Origin: Flavobacteriales bacterium
GTDB taxonomy: Bacteria > Bacteroidota > Bacteroidia > Flavobacteriales > BACL11
Length of the DNA stretch: 64,000 nucleotides
Direction: 5' to 3'
Assembly (NCBI GenBank): GCA_002697505.1
Contig: NZWA01000041.1
Location: 11,186 to 75,185 of the forward strand
Every line of letters starts with the position of its first letter. Position 1 is the first letter of the stretch. The notes under the pieces were generated by a model, which saw only the letters and a list, made by a program, of their open reading frames with translations, ran no database searches and was not told the origin of the DNA. The translations under genes and the position numbers were made by a program. Positions 21,272 through 41,196 of this stretch are shown one piece after another.

Positions 21272-24200
21272 ATGGCCGGTACAAGGATAACACAATTTCC
21301 CAGTTTACCATCTGGGAGTTTGGCTTCGGAAGACGTTTTATTAGTAGTAGACGTCAGTGATACTTTTTATTCTCCTAGCGGCACTAACAAAGCCACCACT
21401 GTAGGCGACCTATCAAACTTTTTCAATAGCCAAGACACTTTTATAGGCTTAGGAGACACTCCCGGATCCTTTGGCAGTGCAGGGCAATCAGTTGTAGTAT
21501 CTGCAGACGGAAACTCTTTAATATTTTCTGGAGTGACTGGAGTGGGCGCAGGAGGAGGGGGAGCCACAAGTTTCATAGAACTTACTGACACCGCAGATTC
21601 TTTAGGGTCTGAGGGTCAAGTAACCGTAGTTTCTGGAAGTGAGATAGTATTTTCTGGGATAGGGCATTTAGTTTCTAGAAGCGAACTTTCTAGCTATGTA
21701 ACCACTTCCCAAACAGGTGATTTTATAACCAGTGATCAGACTGGAGATTTTGCAGGAGCAAGGACGACATTCGCTAGTTTAGATGATACTCCAGATTTAA
21801 TAGGTTCTCCCGGGCAAGTTCTTGTTGTCTCTGATGCAGGTGGTACCTTGCAATTTTCTGACACCGCAGGAGAAGGAGCTGTAGCTTTTACCGGTCTTAA
21901 TGATACCCCTTCTGGATTAGGAATAGAAGGGCAGGCTGTTGTTGTTTCTGGTACTGGGTTAGCTTTTTCTGGAATAACATTAACGAGCACAACTGTCGTA
22001 TCAGGCACAGGAGCTTTCACCGCTTTTTCACAACTAAATGACACACCTTCAGTCATACCAGAAAGTCAGCTAGTTATTGGCGGACCCACGGGCAACCTAG
22101 TTTTTTCTGGAGTAGAGTCTTTCGTCCTTACTGGAGAAACAGGAAATTTTGCAGATACAGCAACATTAGAAAGCTTCACTGAAGGTCTTAACGTAGGTAC
22201 AGATTCGAGCTTGTCAGGAAGAAAACTTCATGTGGTAGGCGACGTTGAAATCTCAGGAACAATTTTTCAAAGCGGATCGATATTTGAAGGTGGGGGTGGA
22301 TCTAGCACTTTTACTGGTCTTTCAGACACTCCTTCTAGCTTGGGTTCAGCCGGACAGTCAGTCGTCGTTTCCGCTGATGGAAACTCTCTAATATTTTCTG
22401 GCATAACTGGAAGTAGCGGCGGAGGCGGAACTACCATTATCTCTGGAGAAACTACTGCTAACAGTGGAATATTAGGAAACGACTTATTTACTGGCGACGG
22501 AGTAAAAACTGGGTTCATGATGACTCGGGCTCCGCTAAACGCTTTTAGCATAACAGTAGCAGTAAACGGTTTGCTACAAGCACCGGGAACCAACTATGAT
22601 TTAATAAGCGGTAGAAGTGGGTTATTGTTTCCAGAAGCTCCTTCTAGCGGCGTAGAAATAGATGTACGTCATTTGGGAGGTTTAGTAGGTCCGTCTGGAG
22701 AACAGGGTATACAAGGAGAAGTAGGGGCGATTGGACCAACAGGATCGACTGGGCCAACTGGGCCAACCGGGCCGACAGGCCCAACTGGACCAACCGGGCC
22801 GACTGGACCAACTGGCCCATCCGGAGCGACAGGCGCAACTGGTCCTACAGGGCCAATAGGGCCGTCTGGAGCTACCGGCGAAAGAGGTCCCCAAGGGTCT
22901 GGCGTAGTGGGAGCTTTAGCCTCTGACATATTTACTGGCGATGGGTCGACAGTAAGTTATAATTTAACAAACAGTATAGGTGAAGCTAAGAATATTATAG
23001 TAAGCATTAACGGATTGCTACAATCGCCGATAACCAACTATACAATTAGTGGCTCAGGCTTAACTTTCCCAGAAGCTCCGTCTAGTGGACTAGAGATAGA
23101 AGTTCGTCATCTTCAAGGTATACAAGGCCCTACCGGTGCTACCGGTCCCTCAGGGTCTGGAGGAGCTACTTCTTTTGTCGGTCTTAGCGACACTGTAGGG
23201 AGTCTAGGTATAGAAGGTCAAGTACCAGTCGTATCTGGTACAACTTTAGCGTTCTCAGGAATAACGGCAGGCACTACTTCTTTTGTAGGTCTTAGTGATA
23301 CTGTAGGGAGCTTAGGCTCAGAAGGTCAAGTGCCAGTTGTGTCCGGCAGCACTTTGGCATTCTCAGGAATAACAGCAGGGTCAAGTGTGGATCTTTCGGC
23401 TGTTGATCAAAATATCGTTCCTGACGCTACAAATACTCGAGACCTAGGAACAACAGGTAAAAGATGGAGAGACCTTTATTTATCCGGCACTTCTATATAC
23501 TTAGGCCAACAAGTACTTCAAGAGTCTGGCGGAGCTTTGAAGCTAAGCAGCGATGACGGATCAACGTTTTCAAATGTTACCACTAAAGCAGTCGCTGATG
23601 ATGATTATGTCTCAATAGCAAGTTCATCCAGTCAAGCCGTTTACGATTTTGATAGTACAGCTAACTTTAATAATACTTCTGCCGCATTTTCGGCTGGGAT
23701 GTTGAATCCCGCAACTGGCGGAAGACTGGAGCTAGATTTAGCTACCGGCATGTTTATAGAAGAGTATAGCAATACAAATAATATAGATACAGATAATAGT
23801 AGTAGCTATGCAATAGATGGGAAAGCAAAAATAGAACAGCAGTTAAATACGGGAGACGGGTCAGACGGAGATGTAACTGTTTCAACATCGGGAACTTACA
23901 CGATGGATACAGACAGTTTGATAGCGGGAAGAACAGTCGCAGATGCGGTGGCTTTTAACGCTGATTCATTTACCACTAATACTGTTGTTTTGACCGACAC
24001 TCCGAGTGGTATTGCCGCGGGGGACGAAGTAATAATTTATTGCGCGCAAGGTTACGGAACTCATAGTCGAACTTCTGGAAATACTGCGCCGAATAGCAGA
24101 AGAGTTAACGTAGGCAATTATGAATTCTTGACAGTAGATTCTGTAGATTCTAGTAGCAAGACAATAACTTTTACTACTACTAAGGAAAAATATTACGGAA

Positions 24201-26071
24201 ACGCATCAGGCTCAGATAGTACTATAGGAACAGGAGGCAGTGAAATGAAAGTCATTGTCCAACGAGTTCCTCATTACGCGAACTTAACCGTAGGTGAAAG
24301 TGCCACTATGACTGCCAGCAAGTGGAACGGCACTAAAGGAGGTTTGATGATTTTTAGAGTAGGAGGGACTCTTACAAATAATGGAACTATAGATGCTGGG
24401 GGTATTGGGTATAGAGGGGGTTTTGCTGGAGCTGCGTTTAGCGCTAGGTCTTCAGCTGGAGAAAGTATAATGGGCGGCCCATTTGAGTACAGTTCAGATA
24501 GCGTAGCCCGTAACGATGCTGGAGGAGGATCTCATGACTGGAAGGGAACAGGCGGAAATCATCACGGGGATGATGAGATGGTAGACAATAACAATCATGG
24601 CAATTATTATAATTATACTAATCCTTATGATTATTTGGATTTCTCAGGGAATGTATTAAGTTCTATAACGGATTACTCAAAATTGCTTTTTGGTTCTGGA
24701 GGAGGGCAGTTTAGAAACGGTAACGGTGGAGATGGCGGAGGTATTATATATTTTCATGCTAACGTTTATATTCAAGACGGAACAGCTAACATAAGGTCAA
24801 GTTATCATAACGGAGGTCAGAGTAATGGAAGTAATGGCAACAGCGGTTATGGCGCTGGTGGTGAAATTCAAATTTTTGTAAATTCAGTAACCTTAACAGG
24901 GAACTCTTTTTCTGTTTCCGGAGCAAGTTATACAAACAACGGACGTGTGACTAGATCTAGTTCTGGTAGATTTAGAATGACTTACGTAAGTTTGTCTGGA
25001 AGCATCTACTCTGGCACTTACTTTTATTCTAGCCAGATAGCCGGAGCTTTTTCTGCGAGCGCTATAATACAATCAACTAACGTGCTCTCTAGCGCTGGAC
25101 AGGTTGATTCAATCAACAGACTTCTAACAACTGTTACTAGTTTGCCCGGAGGGTCACAAGCTTTAATACAGTTTGCTACGGGAACTGGAGCAGGTTTTTA
25201 CTGGCAAGATGCAACGGGAGGTTCTGGTTTAAGTACAGCTTTGACAGCAGGAACAGATACGGTGACGGACCTATCTTCTTTGAATTGGTCTGGTACTAAT
25301 TTCTATTACAAATTAACTTTAACTGGGAACGGAACTAGCACTCCAGAGCTAGATACTCTCAAAGTAGATTACGACCCTGATTTGTTTATCGGCACCGAAC
25401 AAACTTGGACATCGCAAGCTTTAGGAGATGGCACAAAAAGAATTACCCCGACTTCTTTTACAGCTTTTTGGACAGATGATTCGGACAATATAAAACCAAA
25501 ATATCAATTACTTGGTTCTGATACGTCTGATTTTTCTTCTATTAACTATTATCCGGGAGTTAGCGACTATTATCAAGATGGCGGTACGTATGATATAGAC
25601 AACGAAACTGCATTTGATTTAACGACAGCCATCACCCAGTATAATAAATACTGGAAAGTAAAAGTCTATATTTCAAGTGGCCCCACAGCTGCGGATGCTC
25701 CAACAGTAGATAGAGTAAAGTTAAACGCTAATTTAGCAGATGATTTTGATCAAAAAGGCATTGCAAAAGCATGGGTTAATTTTATAGGAGTAACTGGAGG
25801 CGATGCCACTTTAACAGATAGCTTAAACGTAACCAGCGTTAGTAGAATATCGACAGGAGTTTATACTGTTAATTTTAGCGGCCATTTTGACGATACTAAT
25901 TATATGTTTACGGCCGGTGGATATCAAAATGAAGGTGGTTATGCAGTTATGCCGGTACGTGACGCTACGGGGACTACTTCGGTCTCAGGTTATCAAATAG
26001 CAATAGTTTCTGGTCAAAGTAGAATAGATTCAACAGGACAAGGAGTTTACTTAAGTTTCTTAGGAAGTTAA
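21272..26071 (+). CDS. Giant fibre protein with F.GL.DTP repeats, a collagen block, FTGDG modules, a Gly-rich beta-helix-like domain and a tip domain
   Basis: 1599 aa with a fibre-type N-terminus ([11 protein letters not shown]). It has eight F.GL.DTP units and a G-X-Y run at 22679-22903. Its C-terminal domain (KAWVNF...[15 protein letters not shown]) matches the C-termini of the LamG paralogues. Confidence 0.8.
22679..22903 (+). repeat. Collagen-like G-X-Y run (75 triplets, mostly GPT/GPS/GAT)
   Basis: An uninterrupted Gly-every-third-residue translation. The DNA is 9-bp GGN-CCN-ACN periodic. Confidence 0.9.
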
Positions 26072-26072
26072 T

Positions 26073-26080
26073 AGTGTAAT
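26073..26080 (+). promoter_or_regulatory. AGTGTAAT motif
   Basis: Exact 8-mer, 13 nt before the GTG at 26094, with AAGGA between them. Confidence 0.45.
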
Positions 26081-26093
26081 AAAGGAATAAGAA

Positions 26094-28109
26094 GTGTCAA
26101 ATATTAAGAAAATATTACCAAGCTTAGTAGATAGCGGAAATTTTACTTCCGACCTAGTTCCTGATGGTAGCGGCACTAGAGACTTAGGTAGCTCTGCTAA
26201 ACCATGGAAGGATTTATATGTAACTTCGGGCACGATCAACATTGGCGGCGAAACTATTAGTGTTGACGATGATGGCATATCTTTTTCTAGACCTATTAAA
26301 GTTAGAGAAGGTGGGCAAACGAGAAGATTAAGAGCAACTAACTCAGATTTTATAACTACAGGAGACACTGGCAATTTCGCCGATGTAAGTTCTTTGGAAA
26401 GTTTTCCACGGGGTTTAAATGTAGGAACTAGTACAAACTTAGCTAGCAGAACTTTGCAAGTGGTGGGCGATGTAGAAATCTCTGGCACTATATTTCAGAG
26501 TGGTTCTGTGTTTGAAGGCGGTGGTGGCGGAGGCGGAGGAGGAGGATCTTCGACTTTTACCGGTTTAAGCGACACTCCTAGTTCATTTACCGCAAATAAA
26601 TATTTGTCAGTAAATTCAGCAGGCAATGCTATTGAGATGGTAGATGCTGTTCAGTCTGGTCATCAGTCTGTCGAACAGGGATACTTTACCGGTCTAACTT
26701 TAAATGGAACAGGGACTGGGATCCTGCAAAACGCAAGTGGCACAATTTCTAATTTAGATCTCGCCGATAATAAGTTTGATGTTAGTGTCATAGAGGAAAG
26801 AGACAGCACTACCGGAGATGCATATCTTAGTTCGGTGGAGCTGCAGTGTACTTACGAAACTAATATTAACGATGAGAGTGATAATGCTGTAACAGCCACA
26901 GCAGTAGGCTCTGCCGCGAGAAGCACCTCCCAAGCCAAAGAAGGAAGCGCTAGTTTAGATACAAATGGTGACTACATAACATTTCCATATAGTGCCGACT
27001 ATACGAAAATGAGTGGTGATTTTACTATAGAAGTATGGTTTTACTATCAAGGTGATGAAGGCATGATAGCATCTGCCGGTAACGGATCAAATGGTTGGGG
27101 CTTTTACGTAAACACCTCAGGAGACGGCGGAAATCATGGAATAAGGTGGCAGACTTATGGCAGCCAGAGCATGAACGTTTACCAACGCCTTGGCGGCAGT
27201 TTTTCAAGTTCTACTTGGTACCACGCAGCTGTGGTTAGAAGTGGTAATAGCGTAAAAGTTTATTTAAATGGTGTTTCTAGTCATGGAGCTTCGTCCATGA
27301 CTTCTGGTTTGGAAAACGGTAGCAATACTTTGCTCTATGTTGGTACTTATAGCGGCACGGGACAACAGAATCTACAACGCCTAGATGCATTTTTAGACCT
27401 GTTCCGAATTACCACAGCTGCTAGATACACATCTAATTTTACTCCACCCACCAGCTTTCAAGGAAATGTAACAGAAGCTAAATATATCGGGCAGATAGGC
27501 GGTATAGATGATAGCGATGTAGACTACGGAATACAGAAATTATCTAACTCGCAGTTGATGATTAAAAAGTTGTCGAGTAATGATTTTACTCCCGACAGAC
27601 TTTATGTAAACGTAAATAAATTAGGCGCGCTGGGACAAGGCATAGCTTTTGATCAGCTTTATACTGGAGATGGCACGACTACTAATTACGCACTTTCAGA
27701 GAACGTTTCTAACGCAAGAGATGTACTAGTATCGGTTGAAGGTCTAATACAAACGCCGATAACCGACTATACTCTTTTAGGTCAGACGGGAGTTTCGTTT
27801 ACAACCGGCGTTACAAGTGGTCACGAAATTAGTTTCCGACACTTGGCTTTAGGGCCTTCAGGCGCAACTGGCCCAGCAGGAGCTTCGGCGAATATTAGTT
27901 ATCTAACTAACAGATTTACCGGCAACGGAGTTGTTAGTGGTTTTGAAATGACGAGATCAATTTCAACTGCAGATCAAATTTTTGTTTTTGTGAACGGATT
28001 AGTGCAAGATAGTGGAGAGAACTTTAGCGTTACTAACGGAACAGGGTTATTTTTCTCCAGCGGAGAAATAGCTAGCGGAGATAAAATCATGGTGAGGCAT
28101 ATATACTAA
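26094..28109 (+). CDS. Fibre protein with an internal LamG-type domain
   Basis: 671 aa with a GTG start. It has a VGDVEISG-Gly10 hinge and a LamG pattern (SLDTNGDYITFP...GDFTIEVWFY...WYHAAVVRSGNSVKVYLNG...LDLFRITTAARYTSNFTPPT). It also has a short [12 protein letters not shown] collagen stretch and two FTGDG modules, and it ends in IMVRHIY. Confidence 0.8.
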   Translation: MSNIKKILPSLVDSGNFTSDLVPDGSGTRDLGSSAKPWKDLYVTSGTINIGGETISVDDDGISFSRPIKVREGGQTRRLRATNSDFITTGDTGNFADVSSLESFPRGLNVGTSTNLASRTLQVVGDVEISGTIFQSGSVFEGGGGGGGGGGSSTFTGLSDTPSSFTANKYLSVNSAGNAIEMVDAVQSGHQSVEQGYFTGLTLNGTGTGILQNASGTISNLDLADNKFDVSVIEERDSTTGDAYLSSVELQCTYETNINDESDNAVTATAVGSAARSTSQAKEGSASLDTNGDYITFPYSADYTKMSGDFTIEVWFYYQGDEGMIASAGNGSNGWGFYVNTSGDGGNHGIRWQTYGSQSMNVYQRLGGSFSSSTWYHAAVVRSGNSVKVYLNGVSSHGASSMTSGLENGSNTLLYVGTYSGTGQQNLQRLDAFLDLFRITTAARYTSNFTPPTSFQGNVTEAKYIGQIGGIDDSDVDYGIQKLSNSQLMIKKLSSNDFTPDRLYVNVNKLGALGQGIAFDQLYTGDGTTTNYALSENVSNARDVLVSVEGLIQTPITDYTLLGQTGVSFTTGVTSGHEISFRHLALGPSGATGPAGASANISYLTNRFTGNGVVSGFEMTRSISTADQIFVFVNGLVQDSGENFSVTNGTGLFFSSGEIASGDKIMVRHIY

Positions 28110-29188
28110 TGAAAGAATTTAAACTAGATAAAATTAAAGCCACTGGCACGACGCTCGGAGACTTACATTTTCCGAAAGTGAGGTTGTTACTGCCTCTTGA
28201 TGGGAGCAACGGGGCGACTGCCACGTCTGACTCTAGTAATGATAATAGAACTATAACTTTTGTAGGTTCTGATAGTGAAATTTCCACAGCACAAAGTAAA
28301 TTTGGCGAGAGTAGTTTGTCAATAACCGGTGGTAGTAGCAGAATCACCACTCCCGGAACTAGTAACCTGAGCGCGACAGGAGATTTTACCATGGAAGTGT
28401 GGATTTACAATTCAAGCACTTCGGACTATCCATGCTTAATCACTAATGGTGCTTCTTCTAACGAATTAAGTCTATATTTGGCTAGCACAGCCTCTAACCA
28501 AATTCTTAGAATGTGGAATAACGGTTCCGTAACTAACTTTTCTACAACGCTACCTCAAAATCAGTGGTATCATTTTGCTCTAGTTAGAAGCGGAAGCACT
28601 GTAAAGTTATATGTAAACGGCACGGCGGATTCAACTACTAGAAGCGACTCGGGGACTTATGGATGGGGCAGCCAAAGCAACTTGCATATAGGGGGCTATC
28701 CGACAAGAACGGATTATAATTTTGAAGGTTACCTAGATGATTTTCGCCTTACGGTTGGAACGGCTCGCTACACAACAAACTTCACCCCACCAACAACCGC
28801 TCATTTAACTTCGGCCGGAGACGTTAACAAACACATCGTCGTCAACTCGGACGCTGATGGGGTAGCGATTGGCACGGGTGGCATTAATCAAGCACGGATT
28901 GCTCATGCGTGGTGCAATTGGGACGGCACTCAAGCTGCCGCAAGTATGATAGACGGCTCTTATAACATATCAAGTATAACCGACAGCGGCACAGGAGACT
29001 ATACTCTTAATTTTTCTACAGCAGCGTCAGATGCTAATTTTGCTGCAACTTCTTGTGGTATAGGGACTACAAATCAAAGTGATGTGCTTTGCCGCCCTTC
29101 GAGCGCATCTGCTATTCGGCATTTCTCTAGACATAATGGATCAGCTTACGACAATCCTGATGCAGCAATAATAGTTTTCGGGAATTAA
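28109..29188 (+). CDS. LamG-type fibre-tip paralogue P1 (type-A N-terminus)
   Basis: 359 aa. Sequence landmarks: GDLHFPKVRLLLPLDGSNGAT; SKFGESSLSI; GDFTMEVWIY; WYHFALVRSGSTVKLYVNG; LDDFRLTVGTARYTTNFTPPT; HLTSAGDVNKHIVVNSDADGVAIGTGGINQARIAHAW; it ends in VFGN. Confidence 0.8.
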   Translation: MKEFKLDKIKATGTTLGDLHFPKVRLLLPLDGSNGATATSDSSNDNRTITFVGSDSEISTAQSKFGESSLSITGGSSRITTPGTSNLSATGDFTMEVWIYNSSTSDYPCLITNGASSNELSLYLASTASNQILRMWNNGSVTNFSTTLPQNQWYHFALVRSGSTVKLYVNGTADSTTRSDSGTYGWGSQSNLHIGGYPTRTDYNFEGYLDDFRLTVGTARYTTNFTPPTTAHLTSAGDVNKHIVVNSDADGVAIGTGGINQARIAHAWCNWDGTQAAASMIDGSYNISSITDSGTGDYTLNFSTAASDANFAATSCGIGTTNQSDVLCRPSSASAIRHFSRHNGSAYDNPDAAIIVFGN

Positions 29189-29191
29189 AAA

Positions 29192-30316
29192 ATGAATTTA
29201 CAAAAATTAAGACTAGGACAACTGAAACCAGCGGACGGAGCGACGACGCTTGGGGATGTGTATTATCCTCAAACTGTCCTACTGACACCTTTCGAGGGAA
29301 CAAACGGTTCCACGTCTATTAGCGATTTAAGCACAAGGAACCACTCCTCAACTTTTAGCGGTAGCAGCCTTTCGATTTCTACATCTCAAAGTAAATTTGG
29401 ATCAAGTAGCTTATTTCATAATAATCAAAGCTCGACTACCGACCACGTAAGTTTGGGATCAAATAGCGACTTTTTAATAAATCAAAATACAGAATACACT
29501 CTTGAATTTTGGTATCGTGCTTTAGATACTACTGCTAATATCCCCTTTCTTGGTTATGGAACATACAGTAGCGCTATTCAATTCCAAATGTACGCTACTG
29601 GAGATGGAGCCGTAATTTTTAAGCAGGGTAGCGGGTCTTGGGGTTGGGGAAGTATAACTATTACGGGCGGAACCTTGACCGTAGATACTTGGAAGCATAT
29701 AGCAGTAGTAAGAAATGCCGGAACATTAACAGTATATGTGGATGGAACAAGCGTTGGAAGTGCGAGCACGGCAAATTGGGGAGGTAGTACAGGGACGCTG
29801 AGAATTGGGACTTACTTTGGAAATTCACGAGTTGGTTATTTTTATATGGATGATCTTCGGATCACTAAAGGTATCGCTCGTTACACTGGTAATTTTACCC
29901 CGCCAACAACCGCCCATTTAACTTCCTCCGGAGACGCAAATAAACAAATCGTCGTCAACTCCGATGCGGATGGAGTGGCAATCGGAACTGGCGGCATTAA
30001 CCAAGCGCGGGTTGCGAAAGCGTGGGTTAGATTTGATCAGACGGGGAGTCAGTCTATAGACTCTAGCTATAATATATCAAGTGTAACTGATACAAATACA
30101 GGAATAAGCACTTTAAATTTTTCAACAGCGATGAGTGACGCAAACTACTCTGTCGTCGCTACTGGCGGAAGCACTAATGCAAGATATTATGCTAGTACAT
30201 GGTCAATAGGAACAAGTAGTTTTCAGGTAAGAAATTTTTCAGTTTATAATGGAAGCTCTTTAGGAGAGCATTATATAGATAGAGCAGATTGCTCAGCAAT
30301 AGTTTTCGGAAATTAA
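29192..30316 (+). CDS. LamG-type fibre-tip paralogue P2 (type-B N-terminus)
   Basis: 374 aa. The N-terminus is LQKLRLGQLKPADG.TT.GDVYYPQT. It has the LamG pattern, the same hinge block and a VFGN end. Confidence 0.8.
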   Translation: MNLQKLRLGQLKPADGATTLGDVYYPQTVLLTPFEGTNGSTSISDLSTRNHSSTFSGSSLSISTSQSKFGSSSLFHNNQSSTTDHVSLGSNSDFLINQNTEYTLEFWYRALDTTANIPFLGYGTYSSAIQFQMYATGDGAVIFKQGSGSWGWGSITITGGTLTVDTWKHIAVVRNAGTLTVYVDGTSVGSASTANWGGSTGTLRIGTYFGNSRVGYFYMDDLRITKGIARYTGNFTPPTTAHLTSSGDANKQIVVNSDADGVAIGTGGINQARVAKAWVRFDQTGSQSIDSSYNISSVTDTNTGISTLNFSTAMSDANYSVVATGGSTNARYYASTWSIGTSSFQVRNFSVYNGSSLGEHYIDRADCSAIVFGN

Positions 30317-30321
30317 AAAAA

Positions 30322-30329
30322 AGTGTAAT
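30322..30329 (+). promoter_or_regulatory. AGTGTAAT motif
   Basis: Exact 8-mer after an A8 run, 13 nt before the ATG at 30343, with AAGGA between them. Confidence 0.45.
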
Positions 30330-30342
30330 TAAACTCTAAGGA

Positions 30343-33300
30343 ATGGCAACGGAAATTAAAAAGTTAAGACCGGAAAGTATAAGGACCACAGGTGCATCGG
30401 CTAATGACGTGCTCACTATTAGTGGCGGCGAAACAGTTTTCGCAAATGAACTTTCTTTGTCTGGCTTGAATATCGGCACTTCTGAGTCGGTAGCTGGTAA
30501 AAAACTCAATATAGTTGGTGATGTAGAGATTTCCGGAACTCTTTTCCAAAGCGGTGATATTTTCACTTCAAGCCCAGATTTAACCCAATCTGGATTCCTT
30601 ACCGAAGAAAGTACTTCTGGTACATACTCTACTCAATTTAATGTAACTGCAGGAGGAGGTGTCTATTACGTAAGTGAGATAACTGCGGGAAGCCATACAA
30701 CAACTTCACAAGTTCAACAGTTGGAGCTGTATTTACAAAGAGGAAACTCCTACAAATTTACTACTGACTCCAGCACTAATGGCCATCCTCTTATTGTTGT
30801 TACCCAAGGCGGAGGAGGAGGTTATACATATGAGTACACTTCCGGGGTAACAAATTCCAGAGCTCAAAACGGCGGAATACTTTATTTCAGAGTTCCTCAA
30901 TCTGCCCCTGACACTCTTTATTATCAATGTGGCGTTCATAGTAATATGGGCGCAGCTATCAATATCGTAGGGGCAAGTGGGGCTACGGGACCTACTGGAC
31001 CTACTGGACCTACAGGTCCTACTGGCCCAACGGGTCCTACTGGACCAACTGGCCCAACCGGCCCTGCTGGCTCAGATGGCTCAGATGGAGCTACAGGACC
31101 AACCGGACCAACTGGGCCAACCGGACCAACTGGACCGACTGGGCCATCCGGAGCAACAGGTGCAACTGGTCCTGCAGGTCCTACAGGACCAACCGGTCCC
31201 ACCGGCCCATCAGGCGCGACAGAAAACCTTTCTGCTTCAGGCTTTGTAGATTCATCGACAAATCAAACAATCGGTGGCAATAAGACTTTCATAAATGATG
31301 TTTCTATTAATAATTTAACTGTAACAGGAACTACGACGACAGTAAATACTACTGACCTTAATGTTAAAGATAATATAATTAAGATAAACAGCGGTGAGGC
31401 TGGCGCAGGTATTAGTTTAAATTCTGGAGGACTAGTAATAGATAGAGGTAGCGCTACTGATGCAAATATTTTATTTAATGATACTACTGATAGGTTTGAA
31501 GTAAACTTCCCTATAGCTACAGAAGGAACTTTAATACCGACTGCTTTTACTGGATTAACTGATACTCCCGGTTCAATTACAGCTGGGCAAGTTTTAGTAG
31601 GTAGCGGAAGTAGTATTACTTTTTCTGGTACAGACGCTCTTGTTGGCCCAGCAGGATCTACGGGTCCGACTGGACCAACGGGACCAACAGGTCCTAGCGG
31701 CGCAACTGGCGCAGCTGGCTCGACTGGCCCTACTGGCCCTACTGGTCCAACAGGGCCTACAGGTCCAACAGGCCCAACGGGTCCGACTGGGCCTGCGGGA
31801 GCAGGTGGAGGCGGAGGAGCTTCGGCAACTCTAACCTCAGATACTTTTACAGCTAACGGAGCGCTTACTGGATTTTCACTTTCTCTTACTCCTTCAGGAG
31901 TAAACAGTATATTAGTAAGTATTGGTGGCATACTTCAAACCCCAACTACAAACTATGTATTAGATGGTAGCACTCTTAATTTAACAAGTGCACCTCCTTC
32001 TGGAGCAGAAATAGAAGTAAGAAATTTAGACTATCAAGGTGCTAGTGGCGCGACTGGCGCAACTGGTCCAGCCGGTCCGACAGGCCCAACGGGTCCTACC
32101 GGCCCAGCGGGTGCGACTGGCCCTAGTGGCGCGACAGGCGCTACAGGTCCCGCCGGTCCCGCCGGAGCAGACGGCGCAACAGTAACTGGCGTCGGGATAG
32201 CTTTCAGTCAAACTTTTACAGGTGACGGAACTACAGCAAATTACGCTCTTAATGCAGGGATTAACACTACTAAAGACGTATTAGTTTCAATTCAAGGATA
32301 CGTTCAAACTCCAGATATAGATTATACTTTATTAGGGACTACAGGAATATCCTTTAGCACGGGTGTTATGAATGGGCATGAAGTAAACATTCGTCATCTT
32401 GCTATGGGGCCAAGCGGCGTTGCGGGAGCGACAGGTCCAACAGGCCCAGCGGGTTCGACAGGGCCTAGCGGTGCGACTGGCGCGGCTGGCCCAACGGGTC
32501 CAACAGGCCCTGCAGGTTCAACTGGTCCGACTGGCCCAACTGGTCCTACGGGGCCAACCGGTCCCACCGGCCCATCAGGAGCGACAGAAAATTTGTCTGC
32601 TTCTGGCTTTATAACAACTGGAGACACAGGGAATTTTGCTGATACGACCATATTAGAAAGTTTTTCTCAGGGGTTAAACGTTGGTACTAGTTCTAATTTA
32701 GCAAGCAGAAAATTGCACGTCGTTGGTGACGTAGAGATTTCAGGAACTATCTTCCAAAGTGGCTCAGTATTTGAAGGCGGCGGTGGAGGCGGTGGCTCAT
32801 CTACTTTCGTAGGGTTAAGTGATACCCCGGGAAGCTTTACAGCCAATAAATATGTTAGAGTTAATTCGGCAGGCAACGCTTTAGAATTTACAGAAACTGT
32901 TGGAGGTATAAATAGTACTGATATTTTCACAGGAGATGGATCAGTTTCAGGATTTTTGCTAACTCCTACCGCAGTCACTTCTACAAAAGATTTACTAGTA
33001 TCTATAAATGGTGTTCTTCAAAGACCAGATACTGACTATAGTATTGTAGGTAATACTGGATTATTTTTTAATACTAGTGTTACTAGTGGGTATTTTGTAG
33101 AGGCTAGGCATATAGTTGGAGTGAGCGGCGCGGCAGGTCCAGCGGGTCCAGCGGGTCCAGCGGGTCCATCGGGCGCAAGCGTAACTGGCGTGGGAATAGC
33201 TTTTGATCAGTCTTATACAGGCAACGGGTCAACTACTAACTATGCTTTATCTAGCAGCGTTTCTCATGTTAGGGACTTGTTGGTAGTAGTTGAGGGCATG

Positions 33301-35265
33301 GTCCAATCTCCAACTATAGATTATACTTTAACTGGTAATACAGGCATAGTTTTTACCACCGGAGTTCCAAGCGGGCAAGAATTAAATATTCGTCATCTTG
33401 CGATGGGACCGAGCGGTGTGGCAGGCCCAACGGGTCCGACCGGCCCAGCAGGTTCCACAGGTCCAAGTGGAGCGGATGGGGCTGCGGGGCCAACTGGACC
33501 TACAGGTCCTACGGGTCCGACTGGCCCTAGTGGCGCGACAGGCGCTACAGGTCCCGCCGGTCCCGCCGGAGCAGACGGCGCAACAGTAACTGGTGTTGGG
33601 ATAGCTTTTAGCCAAACATTTACAGGTGACGGAGCTACATCAAATTATGCTCTTAGCGCAGGAGTCAGTGCTACTAAAGACATACTGGTAACAATTCAAG
33701 GATTTGCTCAAACGCCTGACATAGATTATAACTTATTAGGGACAACTGGTATTTCTTTTAATGGAAGTATAATAAGTGGACAAGAAGTTAATGTTAGACA
33801 TCTTGCAATGGGGCCAAGCGGCGTTGCGGGAGCGACAGGTCCAACAGGCCCAGCGGGTTCGACAGGGCCAAGTGGCGCGACTGGCGCGGCTGGCCCTACC
33901 GGTCCGACCGGCCCTACCGGCCCTACCGGTCCGACTGGCCCAAGTGGCGCTACTGGTCCTACGGGTCCGACTGGGCCAACGGGTCCTACTGGCCCTTCAG
34001 CCGCCGCCGCTGTCGAAGGAACGGGAGTTTCTGGCTATGTGGCAAGGTGGGCTAGCGCCGATACTTTAACAAGTGGAGCGCTTTTTGATAATGGAACGAA
34101 TGTTAGTATAGGAACAACAAACGCTAAAGATAAATTTCATGTAAATGGTGGTAATATAATGATTACTGACACTTCGCCAGAACTCACTTTTGAAACGTCT
34201 AATAGTAGTCATTACAACTGGCAAATTGCCGCTCAAGAAAATGTAAGTGATACTCTAGAGTTTTCTGTTGGTAGCGCTGACGCAGATGCATCAAACGACA
34301 CATTTTCGCCAAAAATGGTTATTGCACAGGGAGGCAATATTGGCATAAATCAGACAAATCCGCAAAGAAGGCTCCACGTCGTTGGCGATGTAGAAATTTC
34401 AGGAACTATATTCCAAAGCGGCTCTGTATTTGAAGGAGGCGGAGGCGGAGGAGGCGGATCGTCTACGTTCGTTGGCTTGAGCGACACTCCTGCCAACTTT
34501 ACAAGTTCTGCTAATAAATTCTTAAGAGTTAACGCAGCAGCTAACGCAGTAGAGTTCGCAGACGGAAATGGATTGCTAGATATAACTAGCACGAAGTTCA
34601 CAGGAGATGGATCAACTTCAGGCTATGCTTTGTCTTCGACAGTCAACAGCGCTAGTAACCTAATTGTTACAGTTGGTGGTCTTGTTCAAACTCCAGTAGA
34701 AGATTATACAATAGTTGATGGCACTGGAGTATTTCTAGACGAAAATGTAGTAAGCGGAGCAGTAGTAGAAGTAAGAAAAATATCACAAAATTCTTTTTCT
34801 TCTGACGATTCTGTAGCAGATGCATTCACAGGAGACGGCTCAACTTCAGGCTTCGCTTTGTCATTTAGTCCTAATGATAAAGCCGCAAACGTACTTGTGT
34901 CTCTTAATGGCATTATTCAGCAACCAGATACGGCGTATGTAGTAAATGGGACTACTCTTAATTTTGCTTCTGGCACTGTAGCAAGCGGAGATGTAATTGA
35001 TGCTAGACATATAACAATTGGCCAGTCTGGCGCTTCCGCAGGTTCGGCGAGCATTAGCTATCATCAAGATATATTTACAGGTAACGGAGTCGTATCCGGC
35101 TTTTCAATGGGAAGAACAGTTTCTAATATTCTAGAAACAACTGTATTTGTAAATGGCTTAGCTCAGATATCTGACGTAAACTATTTTGTAGATGGAACAG
35201 GGTTGACTTTTGCTTCTGGTGATATAGCCAGCGGCGATTTAATAATGGTTAGACATGTATACTAA
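30343..35265 (+). CDS. Giant collagen-like fibre with a cupredoxin-like domain
   Basis: 1640 aa. It has seven G-X-Y blocks, eight FTGDG modules, three VGDVEISG hinges, one cupredoxin-like domain (aa ~92-208), and ends in IMVRHVY. Confidence 0.85.
30970..31221 (+). repeat. Collagen-like G-X-Y block 1
   Basis: GAS GAT (GPT)n ... GPS GAT, in frame with the ORF at 30343. Confidence 0.9.
31645..31818 (+). repeat. Collagen-like G-X-Y block 2
   Basis: GPA GST GPT ... GPA GAG GGG. Confidence 0.9.
32038..32181 (+). repeat. Collagen-like G-X-Y block 3
   Basis: [15 protein letters not shown] ... GAD GAT. Confidence 0.9.
32407..32586 (+). repeat. Collagen-like G-X-Y block 4
   Basis: [12 protein letters not shown] ... 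GPS GAT. Confidence 0.9.
33127..33180 (+). repeat. Collagen-like G-X-Y block 5 (short)
   Basis: [18 protein letters not shown]. Confidence 0.85.
33406..33585 (+). repeat. Collagen-like G-X-Y block 6
   Basis: GPS GVA GPT ... GAD GAT. It shares a 76-bp exact repeat with block 3. Confidence 0.9.
33811..33999 (+). repeat. Collagen-like G-X-Y block 7
   Basis: GPS GVA GAT ... GPT GPS. It shares a 62-bp exact repeat with block 4. Confidence 0.9.
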
Positions 35266-36374
35266 TGAAGTTACCTAAATTAACAAATTTATCAGTTACC
35301 GGAACGACGGTTGGAGATGTGCATTTTCCGAAAGTGAAGCTGTTGCTGCCTTTTGATGGTTCGAACGGCGCAACGTCAACTACTGATAGTAGCAACGCTA
35401 ATAACTCAGTGACTTTTGTCGGTACTGCTCAGTTGTCTACGGCGCAAAGTAAGTTTGGTGGGAGTAGCCTTCTACTGGATGGTAATAGCGACTACATATA
35501 TATAGCTAACGATGACTTAGATTTTTCAAGTACTGAAAGTTTTACTCTTGAATTTTGGATCTATTTTAATGATATAGACGATGGAAATATAGTAAATTTT
35601 TACTCTGATTATTCTGGAGCCAGCAACGGAATGTCAATTGATAAGAGTACTAGTAATGTGCTTAGAGCTCACAATGGAGACTCGACCCGTATTACTGGAA
35701 CAACAACAGTTTCAGCTGGCCAATGGTATCACATAGCGCTGTCTGGTACTTCTGGGAGTTATAAATTATTTCTAAACGGAACTCAAGAAGGTAGCACTAG
35801 CAGTAACGGCTTCACAGGCGGCACTACTAATAAGTATATAGGGACTTTCTATTGGGCAGGTCTAGGAGGGGCTGTTCGTCTTGTAAACGGGTATATTGAA
35901 GATTTTCGTATCACGAAAGGTGAAGCACGCTATACTTCAAACTTCACCCCGCCGACTTCCGCCCATTTAACTTCCGCCGGAGACGTTAACAAGCACATCG
36001 TTGTAAACTCGGGCGCTGACGGCGTGGCGATAGGAACTGGCGGCATTTCTCAAGCGCGGATTGCGAAAGCGTGGGCTGATATTGATGGAAGTCAAGCGGC
36101 GGCGAACATGATTGCGTCAAGTTATAACATCAGCAGTATAACCGATAATGCCACAGGGGTATTTTCATTTAACTTTTCGACAGCTATGACCGACGCTAAC
36201 TATAGCGCTGTAACAAGCCTCGGATTAGATGGCGGACTCGCTACCTCTGTAGCTAGTTGTAAATTACAAGACAAGACAACTGCCTTAACTAAAGTAAGAT
36301 GTACTTATCGTAGTTCAGGAGCAGCAACTGATTATGATTATAATATTATATGTTTGATAGTTTTTGGGAATTAA
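35265..36374 (+). CDS. LamG-type fibre-tip paralogue P3 (type A)
   Basis: 369 aa. The start overlaps the fibre stop (TAATG), exactly as for P1. It has the LamG pattern, the hinge block and a VFGN end. Confidence 0.8.
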   Translation: MKLPKLTNLSVTGTTVGDVHFPKVKLLLPFDGSNGATSTTDSSNANNSVTFVGTAQLSTAQSKFGGSSLLLDGNSDYIYIANDDLDFSSTESFTLEFWIYFNDIDDGNIVNFYSDYSGASNGMSIDKSTSNVLRAHNGDSTRITGTTTVSAGQWYHIALSGTSGSYKLFLNGTQEGSTSSNGFTGGTTNKYIGTFYWAGLGGAVRLVNGYIEDFRITKGEARYTSNFTPPTSAHLTSAGDVNKHIVVNSGADGVAIGTGGISQARIAKAWADIDGSQAAANMIASSYNISSITDNATGVFSFNFSTAMTDANYSAVTSLGLDGGLATSVASCKLQDKTTALTKVRCTYRSSGAATDYDYNIICLIVFGN

Positions 36375-36380
36375 AAAAAT

Positions 36381-37547
36381 ATGGCTTTATCAAAATTAAG
36401 ACTAGGACAGTTAAAACCAGCCGACGGATCAACGACGGTTGGAGATGTTTACTTCCCTCAGACAAGTTTATTGTTGCCTTTTGATGGGTCGGACGCAGCC
36501 ACTAGCACTAGTGACTTAAGTAACAGAAATGCAACTGTTACTTTTGCTGGCACGGCTCAATTATCTACTGGACAAAGTAAATTTGGCGGATCCAGTTTGC
36601 TATTAGATGGTAACAGCGACTATGTATCAATTTCTGACAGCTATTGGAATACCGCTTTCGACAGTGGAGATTTTACTGTTGAATGTTGGGTAAGATTTGA
36701 TTCGGGAGTTCTTGATGGCTCCACTTCTGTTGAATTTATGGCGACTAGGGGAAACAGCGGCGGTTCATCAACTAATGGCTGGGGCCTTAGGAAGTATAAT
36801 GATAATTTTATAGCTTGGTATATGCGTATAGGTAGTAGCTGGGTTTATCTTAATTATTCTCAAGGAACTAAAACAACCGTATCAGCGGACACTTGGTATC
36901 ACGTTGCGGTAACAAGAAGTGGTAATACTTGGAAACTATTTTTAAATGGAACAGCCGAAGATACAATCACTAATTCAGGCAGCATAACTTCTGCCAATGG
37001 CGATAGATTCGTTATAGGAGCCTTGGCTGGCGGCAACTTCAGTGGAGATCTCTATATGGATGGCTATATAGAGGACGTTAGAGTCACTATAGGACATGCT
37101 CGTTATACTTCAAATTTCACAGCGCCAACTTCTGCACACTTAACTTCCGCCGGAGACGTCAACAAACACATCGTCGTCAACTCGGACGCTGATGGAGTGG
37201 CGATCGGCACGGGTGGGATAAACCAAGCGCGGATCGCGAAAGCGTGGGCAGAGTTTGATGGGTCAGGTATTACTCTAAACGCATCTTATAACGTAAGCAG
37301 TATTACTGATCATGGTAATAGAGATTATACTATAAACTTTGGTACAGCAATGGCAGACACAAATTATAGTATAGTAGGATCAAACATAGGGCAAAGCTCA
37401 TCCATTTCGTATTATTGGTCTGTGGTCACATCGAGCGGGAATGCAAAAACCACAAGCGGAGTAAGAATAAATATACCACATATTGAGGACAGTAGTTTGA
37501 CAAGTAACGACCCAGACGCAGTAAACGTAATAGCCTTCGGCAATTAA
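36381..37547 (+). CDS. LamG-type fibre-tip paralogue P4 (type B)
   Basis: 388 aa. The N-terminus LSKLRLGQLKPADGSTTVGDVYFPQT matches P2. It has the LamG pattern, the hinge block and an AFGN end. Confidence 0.8.
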   Translation: MALSKLRLGQLKPADGSTTVGDVYFPQTSLLLPFDGSDAATSTSDLSNRNATVTFAGTAQLSTGQSKFGGSSLLLDGNSDYVSISDSYWNTAFDSGDFTVECWVRFDSGVLDGSTSVEFMATRGNSGGSSTNGWGLRKYNDNFIAWYMRIGSSWVYLNYSQGTKTTVSADTWYHVAVTRSGNTWKLFLNGTAEDTITNSGSITSANGDRFVIGALAGGNFSGDLYMDGYIEDVRVTIGHARYTSNFTAPTSAHLTSAGDVNKHIVVNSDADGVAIGTGGINQARIAKAWAEFDGSGITLNASYNVSSITDHGNRDYTINFGTAMADTNYSIVGSNIGQSSSISYYWSVVTSSGNAKTTSGVRINIPHIEDSSLTSNDPDAVNVIAFGN

Positions 37548-37549
37548 AA

Positions 37550-38707
37550 ATGAAAAAGTTACCAATAGATTATTTAGGAGCTTTTGGATCGACAGTTGGA
37601 GACGTACATTTTCCGAAAGTTAAATGGCTGTCGCCTTTCGATGGAACGAACGGCGCGACGACAACGACTGACTCGAGCAACTCTAACTCTTCATTAACTT
37701 TGCAAGGTTCAACTCAGATTTCTACAGCACAAAGCAAATTCGGCGGTAGTAGTATGTATGTGCCAAACAGTGCTCAACAAGGAGTTTACGCTAATGTTGC
37801 TGGGACTACAGTTAATTTAACGGGAGACTTTACTATTGAATGGTGGATAAGAAGAGTGCAGGTTTCGTATGCTAATAGTATGGCGCAACTAATATATGGA
37901 ATGCCATTGGCAGACGATTTAACCGGATATGCTATGGTAGTAGGATACTATGGTTCAAGCGCAAGCACGACTCAGGGTCTTATGTATGTTAGTAGTAATG
38001 GATCTAGTTGGAACGTGGCTTCAGCAGTTCAACTTGGTACCGGCAGCTTAGGGACTGTTGGTCAATGGGTGCATATGGCATTGGTCAGATCTGGTTCTGA
38101 CTGGAGTTATTATGTTGATGGTACAAGGACTTACACTGGGTCTCTTGGTTCTGCTACAATATCGACTCCCGGAAGCTACATGTACCTAGGTAGAGCTTGG
38201 GGCGACGTAAGCTCAATGGAAGCTTACTACGATGACTTTAGGGTTACTCAAGGGCTTGCTCGATACACCGGAGCCTCTTTTACAGTTCCTACTACAGCGC
38301 ATCTGACTTCGGCTGGAGACGTCAATAAGCAGATCGTCGTCAACTCGGACGCGGACGGTGTAGCGATTGGCACAGGCGGAATAAACCAAGCGCGGGTTGC
38401 GAAAGCTTGGATAAACTTTAACGGGTCTGGAACAGTTGCTATAAGAGATAGTTATAATTTCAGCAGCTTGACTGACGATGGAACAGGCTTGTATAAAGCT
38501 AATTTTTCTACCGTTATGTCTGATACTAATTATTCGTTCGTGGCCGAGTCATGTGGCACATTAAATGGTATAAATAATGAAAACGGGTTTACAAACCACG
38601 CGAGGAGAGCTGCCATGTCTACAGATTATATTGGAATAGGCACTAGTGCACACGACGGTACTTTTTATGACGCTACGATAGTAATGGCGCAAGTTTTCGG
38701 GAATTAA
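37550..38707 (+). CDS. LamG-type fibre-tip paralogue P5 (type A)
   Basis: 385 aa with the same architecture and a divergent LamG core. Confidence 0.8.
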   Translation: MKKLPIDYLGAFGSTVGDVHFPKVKWLSPFDGTNGATTTTDSSNSNSSLTLQGSTQISTAQSKFGGSSMYVPNSAQQGVYANVAGTTVNLTGDFTIEWWIRRVQVSYANSMAQLIYGMPLADDLTGYAMVVGYYGSSASTTQGLMYVSSNGSSWNVASAVQLGTGSLGTVGQWVHMALVRSGSDWSYYVDGTRTYTGSLGSATISTPGSYMYLGRAWGDVSSMEAYYDDFRVTQGLARYTGASFTVPTTAHLTSAGDVNKQIVVNSDADGVAIGTGGINQARVAKAWINFNGSGTVAIRDSYNFSSLTDDGTGLYKANFSTVMSDTNYSFVAESCGTLNGINNENGFTNHARRAAMSTDYIGIGTSAHDGTFYDATIVMAQVFGN

Positions 38708-38710
38708 AAA

Positions 38711-39847
38711 ATGAATATAACTAAACCAAGATTAGATCAATTTAAAATAACCGGAAGCACGGTTGGAGATTTGTATTTTCCGAACGTCATCTTTCTTGCC
38801 AAGTTTGATGGCTCAAATGGCAGCACCAGCATCACAGATTCCAGCAACAAAAATAATTCAATAACTGTAAACGGAGGCGCTCAAATTTCGACGGCGGCTA
38901 GTAAGTTCGGCGGGAGTAGTCTTAAACTTGACTATGAAAATGCTGGGACAGGAGATAGATTAGTTGCCGATACAGTGGCGGATAATTTAACGTCAACTAC
39001 TCATACTATAGAGTTTTGGTTTAAAACTGATATGGCAGATGGTCATATCACTAGCCAAAATCCTGCCTTTTTTGGATTTAATGATGCTGGTAGCAGTTAC
39101 GATAATAGACTCGTACTACTAATGTATAGCAAAACCGAACTTCGCTTTTATCGTGGCGTTAGTTATACAGCTTTGACAGTCAGCGCTTTAAATGATGACG
39201 CATGGCATCATATAGCAATTGTTTCTGACGGAACAGATTATGATATATATTTAGATGGCAGCAGAATAAGTTCAGATGCAGGGGATTCTAGGCAAATAAA
39301 TTCAAACGATACTTTTATTATCGGCGCAGAACTGGATTCTGGTCCAAGTACAGGTAATTATTTTAGCGGCTATATAGATGATTTTAGAATTACTAACGCA
39401 GTAGCTAGATATAGTGGAGCTTCTTTCGCTTTACCTACAACGCATCTGACTTCCGAGGGAGATGTCAATAAACACATCGTCGTCAACTCCGATGCGGATG
39501 GAGTGGCGATTGGAACAGGCGGCATTAACCAAGCGCGGATTGCAAAAGCATGGATAAATCTTGACTCAACTCAAGCAGCAGCAAGTATGATAAGGGAAAG
39601 CTATAATGTTAGTAGCATGACGGACACAGCTACAGGCAGATATACTATTAATTTTTCGACTGCTTTATCTAATGCAAACTATTGTTTTGCAGGTAGCGCA
39701 GGAAATAATGCGAGCACAACTACAAACGGTAGGGACATTACAAATGACGGGACAAGAACAACTTCTGCATTGCCGATAAGAGTGACTCGTGACAATGACG
39801 TAGCCGTAGAAGATTCTTATGTAGGAATAATAGTTTTCGGGAATTAA
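38711..39847 (+). CDS. LamG-type fibre-tip paralogue P6 (type A variant)
   Basis: 378 aa with the same architecture (GDLYFPNV...; IDDFRITNAVARYSG; hinge block; VFGN end). Confidence 0.8.
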   Translation: MNITKPRLDQFKITGSTVGDLYFPNVIFLAKFDGSNGSTSITDSSNKNNSITVNGGAQISTAASKFGGSSLKLDYENAGTGDRLVADTVADNLTSTTHTIEFWFKTDMADGHITSQNPAFFGFNDAGSSYDNRLVLLMYSKTELRFYRGVSYTALTVSALNDDAWHHIAIVSDGTDYDIYLDGSRISSDAGDSRQINSNDTFIIGAELDSGPSTGNYFSGYIDDFRITNAVARYSGASFALPTTHLTSEGDVNKHIVVNSDADGVAIGTGGINQARIAKAWINLDSTQAAASMIRESYNVSSMTDTATGRYTINFSTALSNANYCFAGSAGNNASTTTNGRDITNDGTRTTSALPIRVTRDNDVAVEDSYVGIIVFGN

Positions 39848-39850
39848 AAA

Positions 39851-41163: not shown

Positions 41164-41168
41164 AAAAA

Positions 41169-41196
41169 TTGACTTTTAGCAAAAAAAATCTATAAT
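41169..41196 (+). promoter_or_regulatory. Sigma70-like promoter, TTGACT-N16-TATAAT
   Basis: TTGACT lies at 41169-41174 and TATAAT at 41191-41196. It sits in the gap after the LamG array and is immediately followed by an AGTGTAAT motif. Confidence 0.6.

Follow-up and report, generated by a model that had tools for sequence, protein, structure and literature searches.

Two fibre modules followed by rows of mosaic LamG adhesin genes, probably diversified by recombination at conserved joints, in an uncultured marine phage lineage

The stretch of DNA analysed here, referred to throughout as the window, comprises 64,000 nucleotides of the Flavobacteriales bacterium contig NZWA01000041.1; all coordinates are window positions, and all genes of the array under study lie on the + strand. 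The array contains two long fibre genes, F1 and F2, each of which is followed directly by a row of “adhesin” genes (P1 and P2 after F1, P3 to P7 after F2) whose products carry a LamG domain. Taken as a whole, the account that we consider probable is that these are two anciently diverged fibre-plus-adhesin modules, which have been diversified by recombination at conserved joints and which probably serve multi-specific host binding. The components of this account differ in standing: the anatomy of the genes and its evolutionary interpretation are put forward with considerable confidence, while the docking of the adhesins on the fibres and their binding of receptors is a tentative proposal.

The adhesins are proteins of about 370 residues (360-390) built from the same succession of parts, which may be illustrated by P3 (35265-36374): a “leader” (residues 1-24, 35265-35336), a LamG domain (residues 25-232), a “linker” (residues 233-270, 35961-36074; HLTSAGDVNKHIVVNSDADGVAIGTGGINQARIAKAW) and a C-terminal “tip” domain (residues 267-369, 36063-36371). 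The limits of these modules are based on an AlphaFold2 model and on the DNA breakpoints against the array genes B.2, A2.1 and E.2 of related phages. P3 has a leader of the type designated KLP, and the other adhesins are P1 (28109-29188; a KEF leader, then LamG, linker and tip), P2 (29192-30316; NLQ leader), P4 (36381-37547; ALS leader), P5 (37550-38707; KKL leader), P6 (38711-39847; NIT leader) and P7 (40060-41163; SFN leader). All seven are LamG genes, as an earlier note on this DNA had stated: the Pfam family Laminin_G_3 (PF13385) scores 47.8-79.9 bits in P1-P7 and 61.4 bits in F1, against a cut-off of 27.6 bits (E values of 1e-12 to 1e-22). The genes are packed via TAATG or TAA-A(n)-ATG junctions, and these joints suggest translational coupling.

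The evidence that carries the evolutionary part of the account comes from the comparison of these genes segment by segment. Between 49 and 58 array genes from about 12 related phages, taken from IMG/VR and from ENA/Tara contigs, were aligned and divided, in P3 numbering, into leader (1-24), LamG (25-232), linker with the conserved start of the tip (233-312) and variable tip (313-369). The nearest neighbour of a gene differs from one segment to another, often at 90-100% identity. The leader of P7 is that of gene C.5 (100% identical in protein, 98% in DNA), its LamG is that of C.3 (96% and 97%) and its tip is that of B.4 (91-98% and 90-100%), and sliding-window identity places the three DNA matches at nucleotides 1-60, at nucleotides 120-660 and from nucleotide 808 to the end of the gene, respectively. 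The leader of P3 is 100% identical to that of A2.1 and C.1, and its LamG is 99-100% identical to that of B.2, a gene which has an NLQ leader and stands second after F1 in phage B; the DNA identity of P3 and B.2 is 52% over nucleotides 1-45, 97-100% over nucleotides 49-680, about 80% in the linker and about 45% in the tip. P6 matches A2.3 in leader and LamG (90-100%) and B.3 and E.1 in the tip (97-100% in DNA from nucleotide 830), its identity to B.3 being about 40-50% until about nucleotide 800 and 97-100% thereafter. The LamG of P4 is nearest to that of C.1, which has a KLP leader, and its tip to those of C.7, A2.6 and K.2, while the leader of P1 is 92-96% identical to those of A1.1 and B.1, its LamG (43%) and tip (38%) having no close relative. 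There are 28 inter-phage gene pairs in which the LamG segments are at least 85% identical, and the leader is common to 13 of them and the tip to 3; the tips are at least 85% identical in 18 inter-phage pairs, one of which also has the leader in common. All three modules are common to a single pair. Leader, LamG and tip are independently assorting cassettes.

The breakpoints lie at two conserved joints, the start of the LamG domain and the linker. Among the seven window paralogs the linker is 89% identical at the amino acid level, and identity at third codon positions is 54% in the linker, 49% in the leader and 34-41% in the LamG and tip segments. Because its high protein identity is combined with only 54% identity at third positions, the linker is held mainly by protein-level selection and not by recent homogenisation. 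At the level of the population, the P3 linker also acts like a recombination site. A 94.8-kilobase contig (L023) represents the same phage at 99.84% identity, and 12 of the 34 differences between it and the window over 21 kilobases fall within 49 nucleotides of this linker (36017-36065), a cluster which, to judge from the sequence, looks like a short recombination patch. Neither the window paralogs (14-18 differences) nor the sampled loci (at least 8 differences) include a donor of the patch.

Several other sources of variation were considered and rejected. Gene conversion within the genome does not explain the conservation of the linker, given the 54% identity at third positions and the 12-substitution patch that is unmatched in the paralogs. 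An invertible segment or shufflon (Mu G, P1 C) is at odds with the common + orientation of all the genes and with the presence of only five weak inverted pairs (20-26 nucleotides, 76-82%), and no recombinase is found among the Pfam matches of the large open reading frames of the window. A diversity-generating retroelement was set aside because the variation consists of whole-cassette replacement and not of adenine-directed point changes; no reverse transcriptase domain is found by Pfam in the large open reading frames of the window, small ones not having been scanned. A frameshift fusion of the fibre with the first adhesin was rejected as well, since the frames differ by -1 with no slippery heptamer at CAT-ATA-TAC-TAA, and relatives have TAAAAATG spacing.

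The composition of the arrays varies among the related phages, in which a fibre gene is followed by 2 to 8 or more LamG genes of about 370 residues, the gene for a small lipoprotein coming first in phage E. At least 12 leader types can be recognized (KEF, NLQ, KLP, ALS, KKL, NIT, SFN, REL, RQF, RQP, SLT, PFN and RKV). The window phage (W) has F1, KEF, NLQ, followed by F2, KLP, ALS, KKL, NIT, lipoprotein, SFN. Phage A has F1, KEF, NLQ, an open reading frame of 235 residues, then F2, KLP, REL, NIT, ALS, lipoprotein, SFN, KKL, RQF, and phage B has F1, KEF, NLQ, then F2, KKL, REL, NIT, lipoprotein, SFN .... The orders listed from F2 onwards are those of C (F2, KLP, RQP, RQF, NIT, lipoprotein, SFN, ALS, KKL, REL), E (F2, lipoprotein, NLQ, ALS) and M (F2, KLP, KEF, lipoprotein, SFN, ALS, KKL, REL); in K the upstream fibre F0 is directly followed by F2 and then by KLP, lipoprotein, SFN and one other gene, with no F1 unit. 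Phage D has one fibre of 2804 residues with an F1-type end, then NLQ, REF, KEF' and SFN. F1-KEF-NLQ is accordingly a unit, whose leaders come in one order in W, A and B and which is wholly absent from K, and KLP is first after F2 in W, A, C, K and M. In phage A the place where the two modules meet has taken up an insertion: the 235-residue open reading frame (L019 8776-9483, equivalent to L001 452-1159), which has no match in the window, lies between the F1 unit and F2.

Marine metagenomes are rich in homologues: more than 2769 proteins match at E<=1e-10, and the contigs that encode them reach 166-170 kilobases. Against 50,697 phage records, megablast of positions 26000-41200 gave a single chance match of 39 nucleotides and megablast of positions 1-20000 gave none; a scan of GTDB genomes for a prophage or a hint of the host found no relatives.

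The arrays of the relatives bear directly on a different history proposed in the earlier note, in which a block of a fibre, a “type A” LamG gene and a “type B” LamG gene (P1 and P2; P3 and P4) would have been duplicated within the lineage, the second copy then gaining collagen and three further type A genes (P5-P7). We regard this history as improbable, and the duplication, as a recent event, is largely refuted. A good part of what had been seen is nevertheless there. F1 ends in ...SGEIASGDKIMVRHIY (IMVRHIY) and F2 in IMVRHVY according to the open reading frames and their translations, and in both fibres the final A of the TAA stop is also the first letter of the next ATG (P1 starts at 28109, P3 at 35265). 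The junctions, GGCATATATACTAATGAA in F1 and GACATGTATACTAATGAA in F2, have CAT[AG]TATACTAATGAA in common, although the longer string beginning with GACAT that had been claimed for both reads GGCAT in F1. P2 (MNLQKLRLGQLKPADGATTLGDVYYPQT) and P4 (MALSKLRLGQLKPADGSTTVGDVYFPQT), the two type B genes, do have the N-terminus L.KLRLGQLKPADG.TT.GDVY.PQT in common: they are 78% identical over the first 36 alignment columns, as against 38-53% with the other paralogs, and their leaders (78-82% identical) are sister types also when the relatives are included. In a blastn self-comparison of the DNA, one match spans the junction of fibre end and first gene (28038-28314 versus 35194-35467, 71.5% over 281 nucleotides, E 5e-31) and another the junction of the type A end and the type B start (29171-29274 versus 36357-36463, 80% over 107 nucleotides, E 3e-21), and this similarity reflects homology, not chance. 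The presence or absence of the F1 block as one unit among relatives also favours the duplication.

If the block as a whole had been copied, then the gene bodies should pair as the leaders of P2 and P4 do, and they do not. The LamG cores of P2 and P4 are only 24% identical and those of P1 and P3 33%; over the first 36 columns P1 and P3 are 66% identical, compared with 62% for P3 and P5 and for P3 and P7. The leader of P1 is nearest to the RQF type (83-85%) and not to that of P3 (62%, and 46% over the first 13 residues), so that of the closest relatives proposed on N-terminal grounds the leaders of P2 and P4 alone are sisters. For P1 and P3 this is the result that the earlier note had named as one that would refute its proposal; the gene bodies give it as well, and P2 and P4 pair in the leader only. 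The nearest window paralog of P3 is P7 (90% before the LamG domain, 48% within it), and these two also give the longest DNA match between P genes (35294-36203 versus 40094-40995, 68% over 931 nucleotides). Self-comparison does not find collinear DNA similarity over the whole putative unit: the patches of 281 and 107 nucleotides alone are unit-specific, and the remaining matches are common to all P paralogs.

The features that had been taken as signatures of the duplicated unit are, moreover, widely distributed. The fibre stop abuts or overlaps the next gene in 15 of the 15 fibres examined (an adhesin gene in 14, the lipoprotein gene in E), through TAATG or TAAAAATG, and the fibre end IMVRHxY accompanies it; since this end and this type of junction are present in all related arrays, they are family-wide traits. 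The order of type A and type B after F2 is peculiar to the window, the only array with ALS in second place; elsewhere that place is taken by the lipoprotein gene or by a gene with a REL, RQP or KEF leader. P5, P6 and P7 are not additional type A genes, each having a conserved leader type of its own (KKL, NIT and SFN). Collagen blocks occur in F0, in the F2-type fibres of all relatives and in the fibres of the distant phages G-J, so that nothing points to collagen having been gained in F2. What is left of the segmental origin is the existence of two paralogous modules of fibre end and LamG genes, the F1-KEF-NLQ unit and the sister leaders of P2 and P4, without the recent three-gene duplication. 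“Type A” and “type B” are leaders of 15-25 residues, and the duplication history inferred from them is weakly supported; the likeness between the two successions is best read as leader similarity combined with family-wide junctions, and not as the footprint of a recent duplication of three genes. Similar gene ends and N-termini in arrays of this kind are family-wide joints that cannot be read as a record of local duplication.

The fibres themselves speak for an older separation. F1 (26094-28109) starts with GTG and encodes 671 residues, with an internal LamG domain at residues 289-443 and two C-terminal Ig-like repeats; F2 (30343-35265) encodes 1640 residues, with seven collagen blocks and eight Ig-like (DUF4183 / T7-gp17-N-like) repeats. 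The Pfam matches of F2 are Collagen (PF01391; E 2.5e-47, 158.9 bits, seven stretches) and Phage_T7_tail (E 1.6e-24), while F1 has no match to the Collagen hidden Markov model and retains only a G-X-Y remnant of four triplets at about residues 590-601. Residues 471-671 of F1 are 43% identical to residues 1458-1640 of F2, and residues 74-223 of F1 are 65% identical to an internal module of F2; F1 and F2 are stacks of reused modules. Over the last 64 residues, the F2-type ends (W, A, B, C, E, K and M) are 80-86% identical to the fibres of the distant phages G-J, and 60-70% identical to the F1-type ends (W, A, B and D). Over the last 220 residues, F1 scores 234 bits with the fibre of G and 210 bits with that of H, compared with 127 bits with F2, and F2 scores 176 bits with the fibre of I and 174 bits with that of J. 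Each of the two ends is therefore nearer to fibres of distant phages than to the other, which is a further point against a duplication within the lineage. The two ends are non-sister, which implies that the modules are either old paralogs or horizontally exchanged, and the two fibre-plus-adhesin modules are best read as anciently diverged.

Relatives of F1 are found in phages A, B and D. Its internal LamG domain (26958-27422) has the motif with which the LamG of the P genes terminates, ARYTSNFTPPTS, and it looks like a P-type LamG cassette fused into the fibre. The strongest repeat of the whole region lies inside F2 (32083-32574 versus 33487-33978, 83% over 494 nucleotides by blastn self-comparison), where the module of collagen and Ig-like sequence is present in a third copy at 70% (32125-32570 versus 33124-33569); such modules make the length of the fibre vary from 968 to 2835 residues among relatives.

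The C-terminal Ig-like domain of these fibres ends in ...ASGD[KL]IMVRH[IVT]Y, and neither F1 nor F2 has a tip domain. The fibre encoded immediately upstream, F0 (21272-26071; 1599 residues with collagen blocks, Pfam Collagen at 41.9 bits and DUF4183; 90% identical to F0 of phage B), has one of its own: its last approximately 100 residues (25709-26068) form a tip of the P type, 46% identical over 56 residues to that of P7 (E 8e-12) with no linker. From the presence of this tip F0 would be a self-sufficient fibre, unlike the tipless F1 and F2.

The structural identity of the adhesin domains was examined by modelling. An AlphaFold2 model of P3 with 92 homologues has a mean predicted local distance difference test (pLDDT) score of 84.5, with a confident LamG sandwich (residues 24-218) and a confident C-terminal beta-sandwich (residues 267-367), while in this monomer the leader (1-19) and the linker (236-265) are below 50, as would be expected of segments whose folding requires oligomerization or a binding partner. 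In Foldseek searches the LamG domain resembles the clostridial neurotoxin HCN domain and the carbohydrate-binding domain of GH43, which are lectin-like receptor-binding domains. The tip modelled alone reaches a pLDDT of 89 and has no significant match in the PDB; in BFVD it matches the C-termini of the tail fibres of Syn5, P-SSP6, S-TIM5, ACG-2014f and S-CAM7 (E 8e-9 to 1e-4, TM 0.7-0.86), and PHROG 11355, “tail fiber protein”, is a further match (E 4e-13 to 6e-10 and beyond). Among 1.84 billion representative proteins searched, 5465 clusters contain the tip at E<=1e-3. The tip is a widely reused phage module without a solved structure. Hundreds of stand-alone tip proteins of about 110-135 residues occur among the representative-protein matches, and P0147, P0148, P0151 and P0179 are proteins of about 1000-1300 residues with 7-9 tandem copies of the tip.

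Our account combines these elements as follows. A long modular fibre ends in a conserved Ig-like domain without a tip, and a tightly packed row of adhesins is encoded directly 3' of it, each made of a leader of 15-25 residues, a LamG/ConA-like lectin, a near-invariant linker of about 38 residues and a beta-sandwich tip of about 100 residues. Homologous recombination at the LamG start and at the linker exchanges the cassettes from one slot to another and from one phage to another, and arrays gain and lose genes over the range of 2 to 8. We infer that the P proteins are located in the virion, dock on the fibres and bind receptors: the adhesins would assemble on or beside F1 and F2, docking through the conserved leader and LamG start or through the linker, and would provide the receptor-binding ends that those fibres miss. 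One virion would thereby obtain several glycan specificities, which recombination would re-deal, and the embedded lipoprotein would be a plausible receptor-masking or superinfection-exclusion factor. In a bolder version, which we think unlikely as it stands, the leaders would be slot-specific docking addresses on F1 and F2 (or on the preceding adhesin) for an ordered set of up to eight lectin heads, with the lipoprotein masking one receptor. If true, this would amount to a multi-headed and programmable adhesin fibre in which LamG and tip are re-dealt with assembly undisturbed, carried by an uncultured and abundant lineage of marine siphoviruses.

The main functional rival to docking on the fibres would make each P protein a short fibre or spike in its own right, homotrimeric via the linker and with its own N-terminus as the anchor on the tail tip, neck or capsid, the adjacency of the fibre genes reflecting co-expression. 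Each P protein does have a full complement of anchor-like N-terminus, binding domain and tip, the tip domain occurs elsewhere in the stand-alone and multi-tip proteins, and F2 shows no strict stoichiometry between repeats and genes. That F0 has a tip and F1 and F2 have none is difficult to reconcile with such independence, as are the abutting or overlapping of the fibre stop and the next gene in all 15 fibres and the correlation of the leader of the first gene with the type of fibre end; separate short trimeric fibres are on these grounds rather unlikely. Much further down the scale, and very improbable in our view, is the alternative that the P genes encode fibre assembly chaperones of the Tfa kind or non-structural secreted lectins. 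Genes immediately 3' of fibre genes often encode assembly chaperones, such as lambda Tfa and T4 gp38/gp57. The P proteins, however, are two-domain lectin and tip proteins of 360-390 residues; they have no chaperone match in Pfam or PHROG, their PHROG matches being baseplate, virion structural and tail-fibre families; their tip is the C-terminal end of annotated tail fibres; and their extreme cassette diversity is typical of receptor-binding parts and not of chaperones.

Several points weigh against the account of two anciently diverged modules with adhesins docked on their fibres. The roles of the P proteins as virion parts or as binders of F1 and F2 are putative, and the phage collection includes no cultured relative. 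The fibre and adhesin genes (16848-41163) lie between the head genes and the genes for head-tail joining, tail tube and tape measure (41768-54614), and attachment to the neck or head instead of the tail is possible. The number of Ig-like repeats agrees with the number of adhesin genes in F1 (2:2, in three phages) and in D (4:4), but not in F2 (8:5) or in F2 of phage A (11:7). With respect to history, the junction-spanning DNA similarity links the two units and leader order is partly kept, KLP heading the row after F2 in 5 of 7 phages and KEF-NLQ following F1 in 3 of 3; an old duplication of the unit is possible. Stoichiometric docking, with repeat number equal to adhesin number, was not adopted, since it fails for the two F2 fibres just mentioned.

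The arrangement can be compared with several known systems. In T-even phages of the T2, T6 and S16 type, the adhesin gene gp38 reportedly lies directly 3' of the distal fibre gene gp37, the fibre is said to lack a receptor-binding end, and recombination at conserved motifs is said to swap the specificity segments that they flank. The present arrays are similar in having an adhesin gene directly 3' of a tipless fibre gene and breakpoints at the conserved LamG start and linker. They differ in having a LamG domain and a beta-sandwich tip instead of the gp38 polyglycine sandwich, with no relation in sequence or fold, in having 2-8 paralogous adhesins per fibre instead of one, and in having three independent cassettes per gene, and the binding to the fibre is putative here; no gp38 or related family is found among the Pfam or PHROG matches. 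Branched systems with multiple receptor-binding proteins are known from CBA120 (TSP1-4), G7C (gp63.1/gp66) and the Klebsiella phage PhiK64-1, which has 11 depolymerases. Like these, the present locus has tandem receptor-binding genes with conserved short N-terminal parts and exchangeable distal domains, and the presumed benefit, as there, is a broader or hedged host range; unlike them, it encodes lectin folds and not beta-helix depolymerases, and no T4 gp10-like or XD docking domains were detected.

The LamG domains belong to the same subfamily as those of the LamG-rich giant structural or “baseplate wedge” proteins of T4-like cyanophages and S-SKS1 (PHROGs 13163, 1469, 701 and 3545), whose LamG parts are the best matches of P3 (PHROG E values of 1e-25 to 1e-42; 35-37% by tblastn). 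The LamG domains of those phages are strung in single giant proteins, unlike the separate genes with leader, linker and tip described here; phage DSL-LC04 likewise has LamG inside one protein of 1365 residues with no array, and S-SKS1 has a single larger protein. The umbrella toxin particles of Streptomyces are reported to have a scaffold which carries diversified lectin paralogues (PMC13274773; bioRxiv 10.1101/2025.04.24.650519). The likeness to that design, with one scaffold, several diversified lectins and bet-hedging in targeting, would be one of functional analogy only, the umbrella being a bacterial toxin particle unrelated in sequence.

The exchange of modular receptor-binding proteins and the existence of tandem loci that encode several of them are already well known. 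The three-way cassette architecture of this abundant uncultured marine lineage was found neither among cultured phages nor in literature searches on phage arrays of LamG or Laminin_G_3 genes and on S-SKS1. Receptor-binding genes set the host range of phages, and current knowledge of them comes mostly from a few cultured models. The present arrays are a natural example of the combinatorial assembly of adhesins that is unusually clean, each gene consisting of three cassettes, each fibre being followed by 2-8 genes and the breakpoints being sharp. If the adhesins dock on the fibres, then they would offer a ready scaffold for the study or engineering of multi-specific binding, and they would help to explain how ocean phages hedge against variation in host surfaces.

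The embedded lipoprotein is encoded by an open reading frame of 70 residues inside the array (39851-40063, +; MKKILLTFTLIFSGC...), the stop of which overlaps the start of P7. Its predicted lipoprotein signal is MKKILLTFTLIFSG|C, with a lipobox FSG|C read from the sequence, and such a signal implies a diderm host. The protein hardly differs between the window and A, B, C and M and diverges more in K, and in E its gene stands directly after F2; it is far more conserved than the adjoining adhesin genes. Lipoproteins of the T5 Llp and phi80 Cor type are encoded beside receptor-binding genes, and T5 Llp masks the receptor after infection. By analogy of context, the present protein, with its 70 residues and lipobox and its gene among less conserved ones that presumably serve receptor binding, may act in superinfection exclusion or in the masking of a receptor.

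The window as a whole is a siphovirus-like structural region, with a large terminase gene at 1607-3430, a tape-measure gene at 47937-54614 (PhageMin_Tail) and, on the minus strand, a gpJ-like tip protein of 1968 residues at 57527-63433 with Phage-tail_3 and FNIII-A_GpJ domains. Beyond the tape-measure gene (54611-63986) the genes are on the minus strand, and the GC/AT skew flips at about 54 kilobases; it is unusual for the tail-tip module to be inverted with respect to the genes for tube and tape measure. A scan for promoters and terminators gave counts not above those of shuffled sequence. The best sigma-70-like match of the region on the + strand (41169-41196, TTGACT-16-TATAAT, 11 of 12 positions) lies just past the stop of P7, at the start of the next block of genes. 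Just upstream of the large terminase gene, positions 590-1528 (+) encode a protein of 312 residues with a C2H2 zinc finger, an HNH-associated repeat and an ERCC4 nuclease domain.

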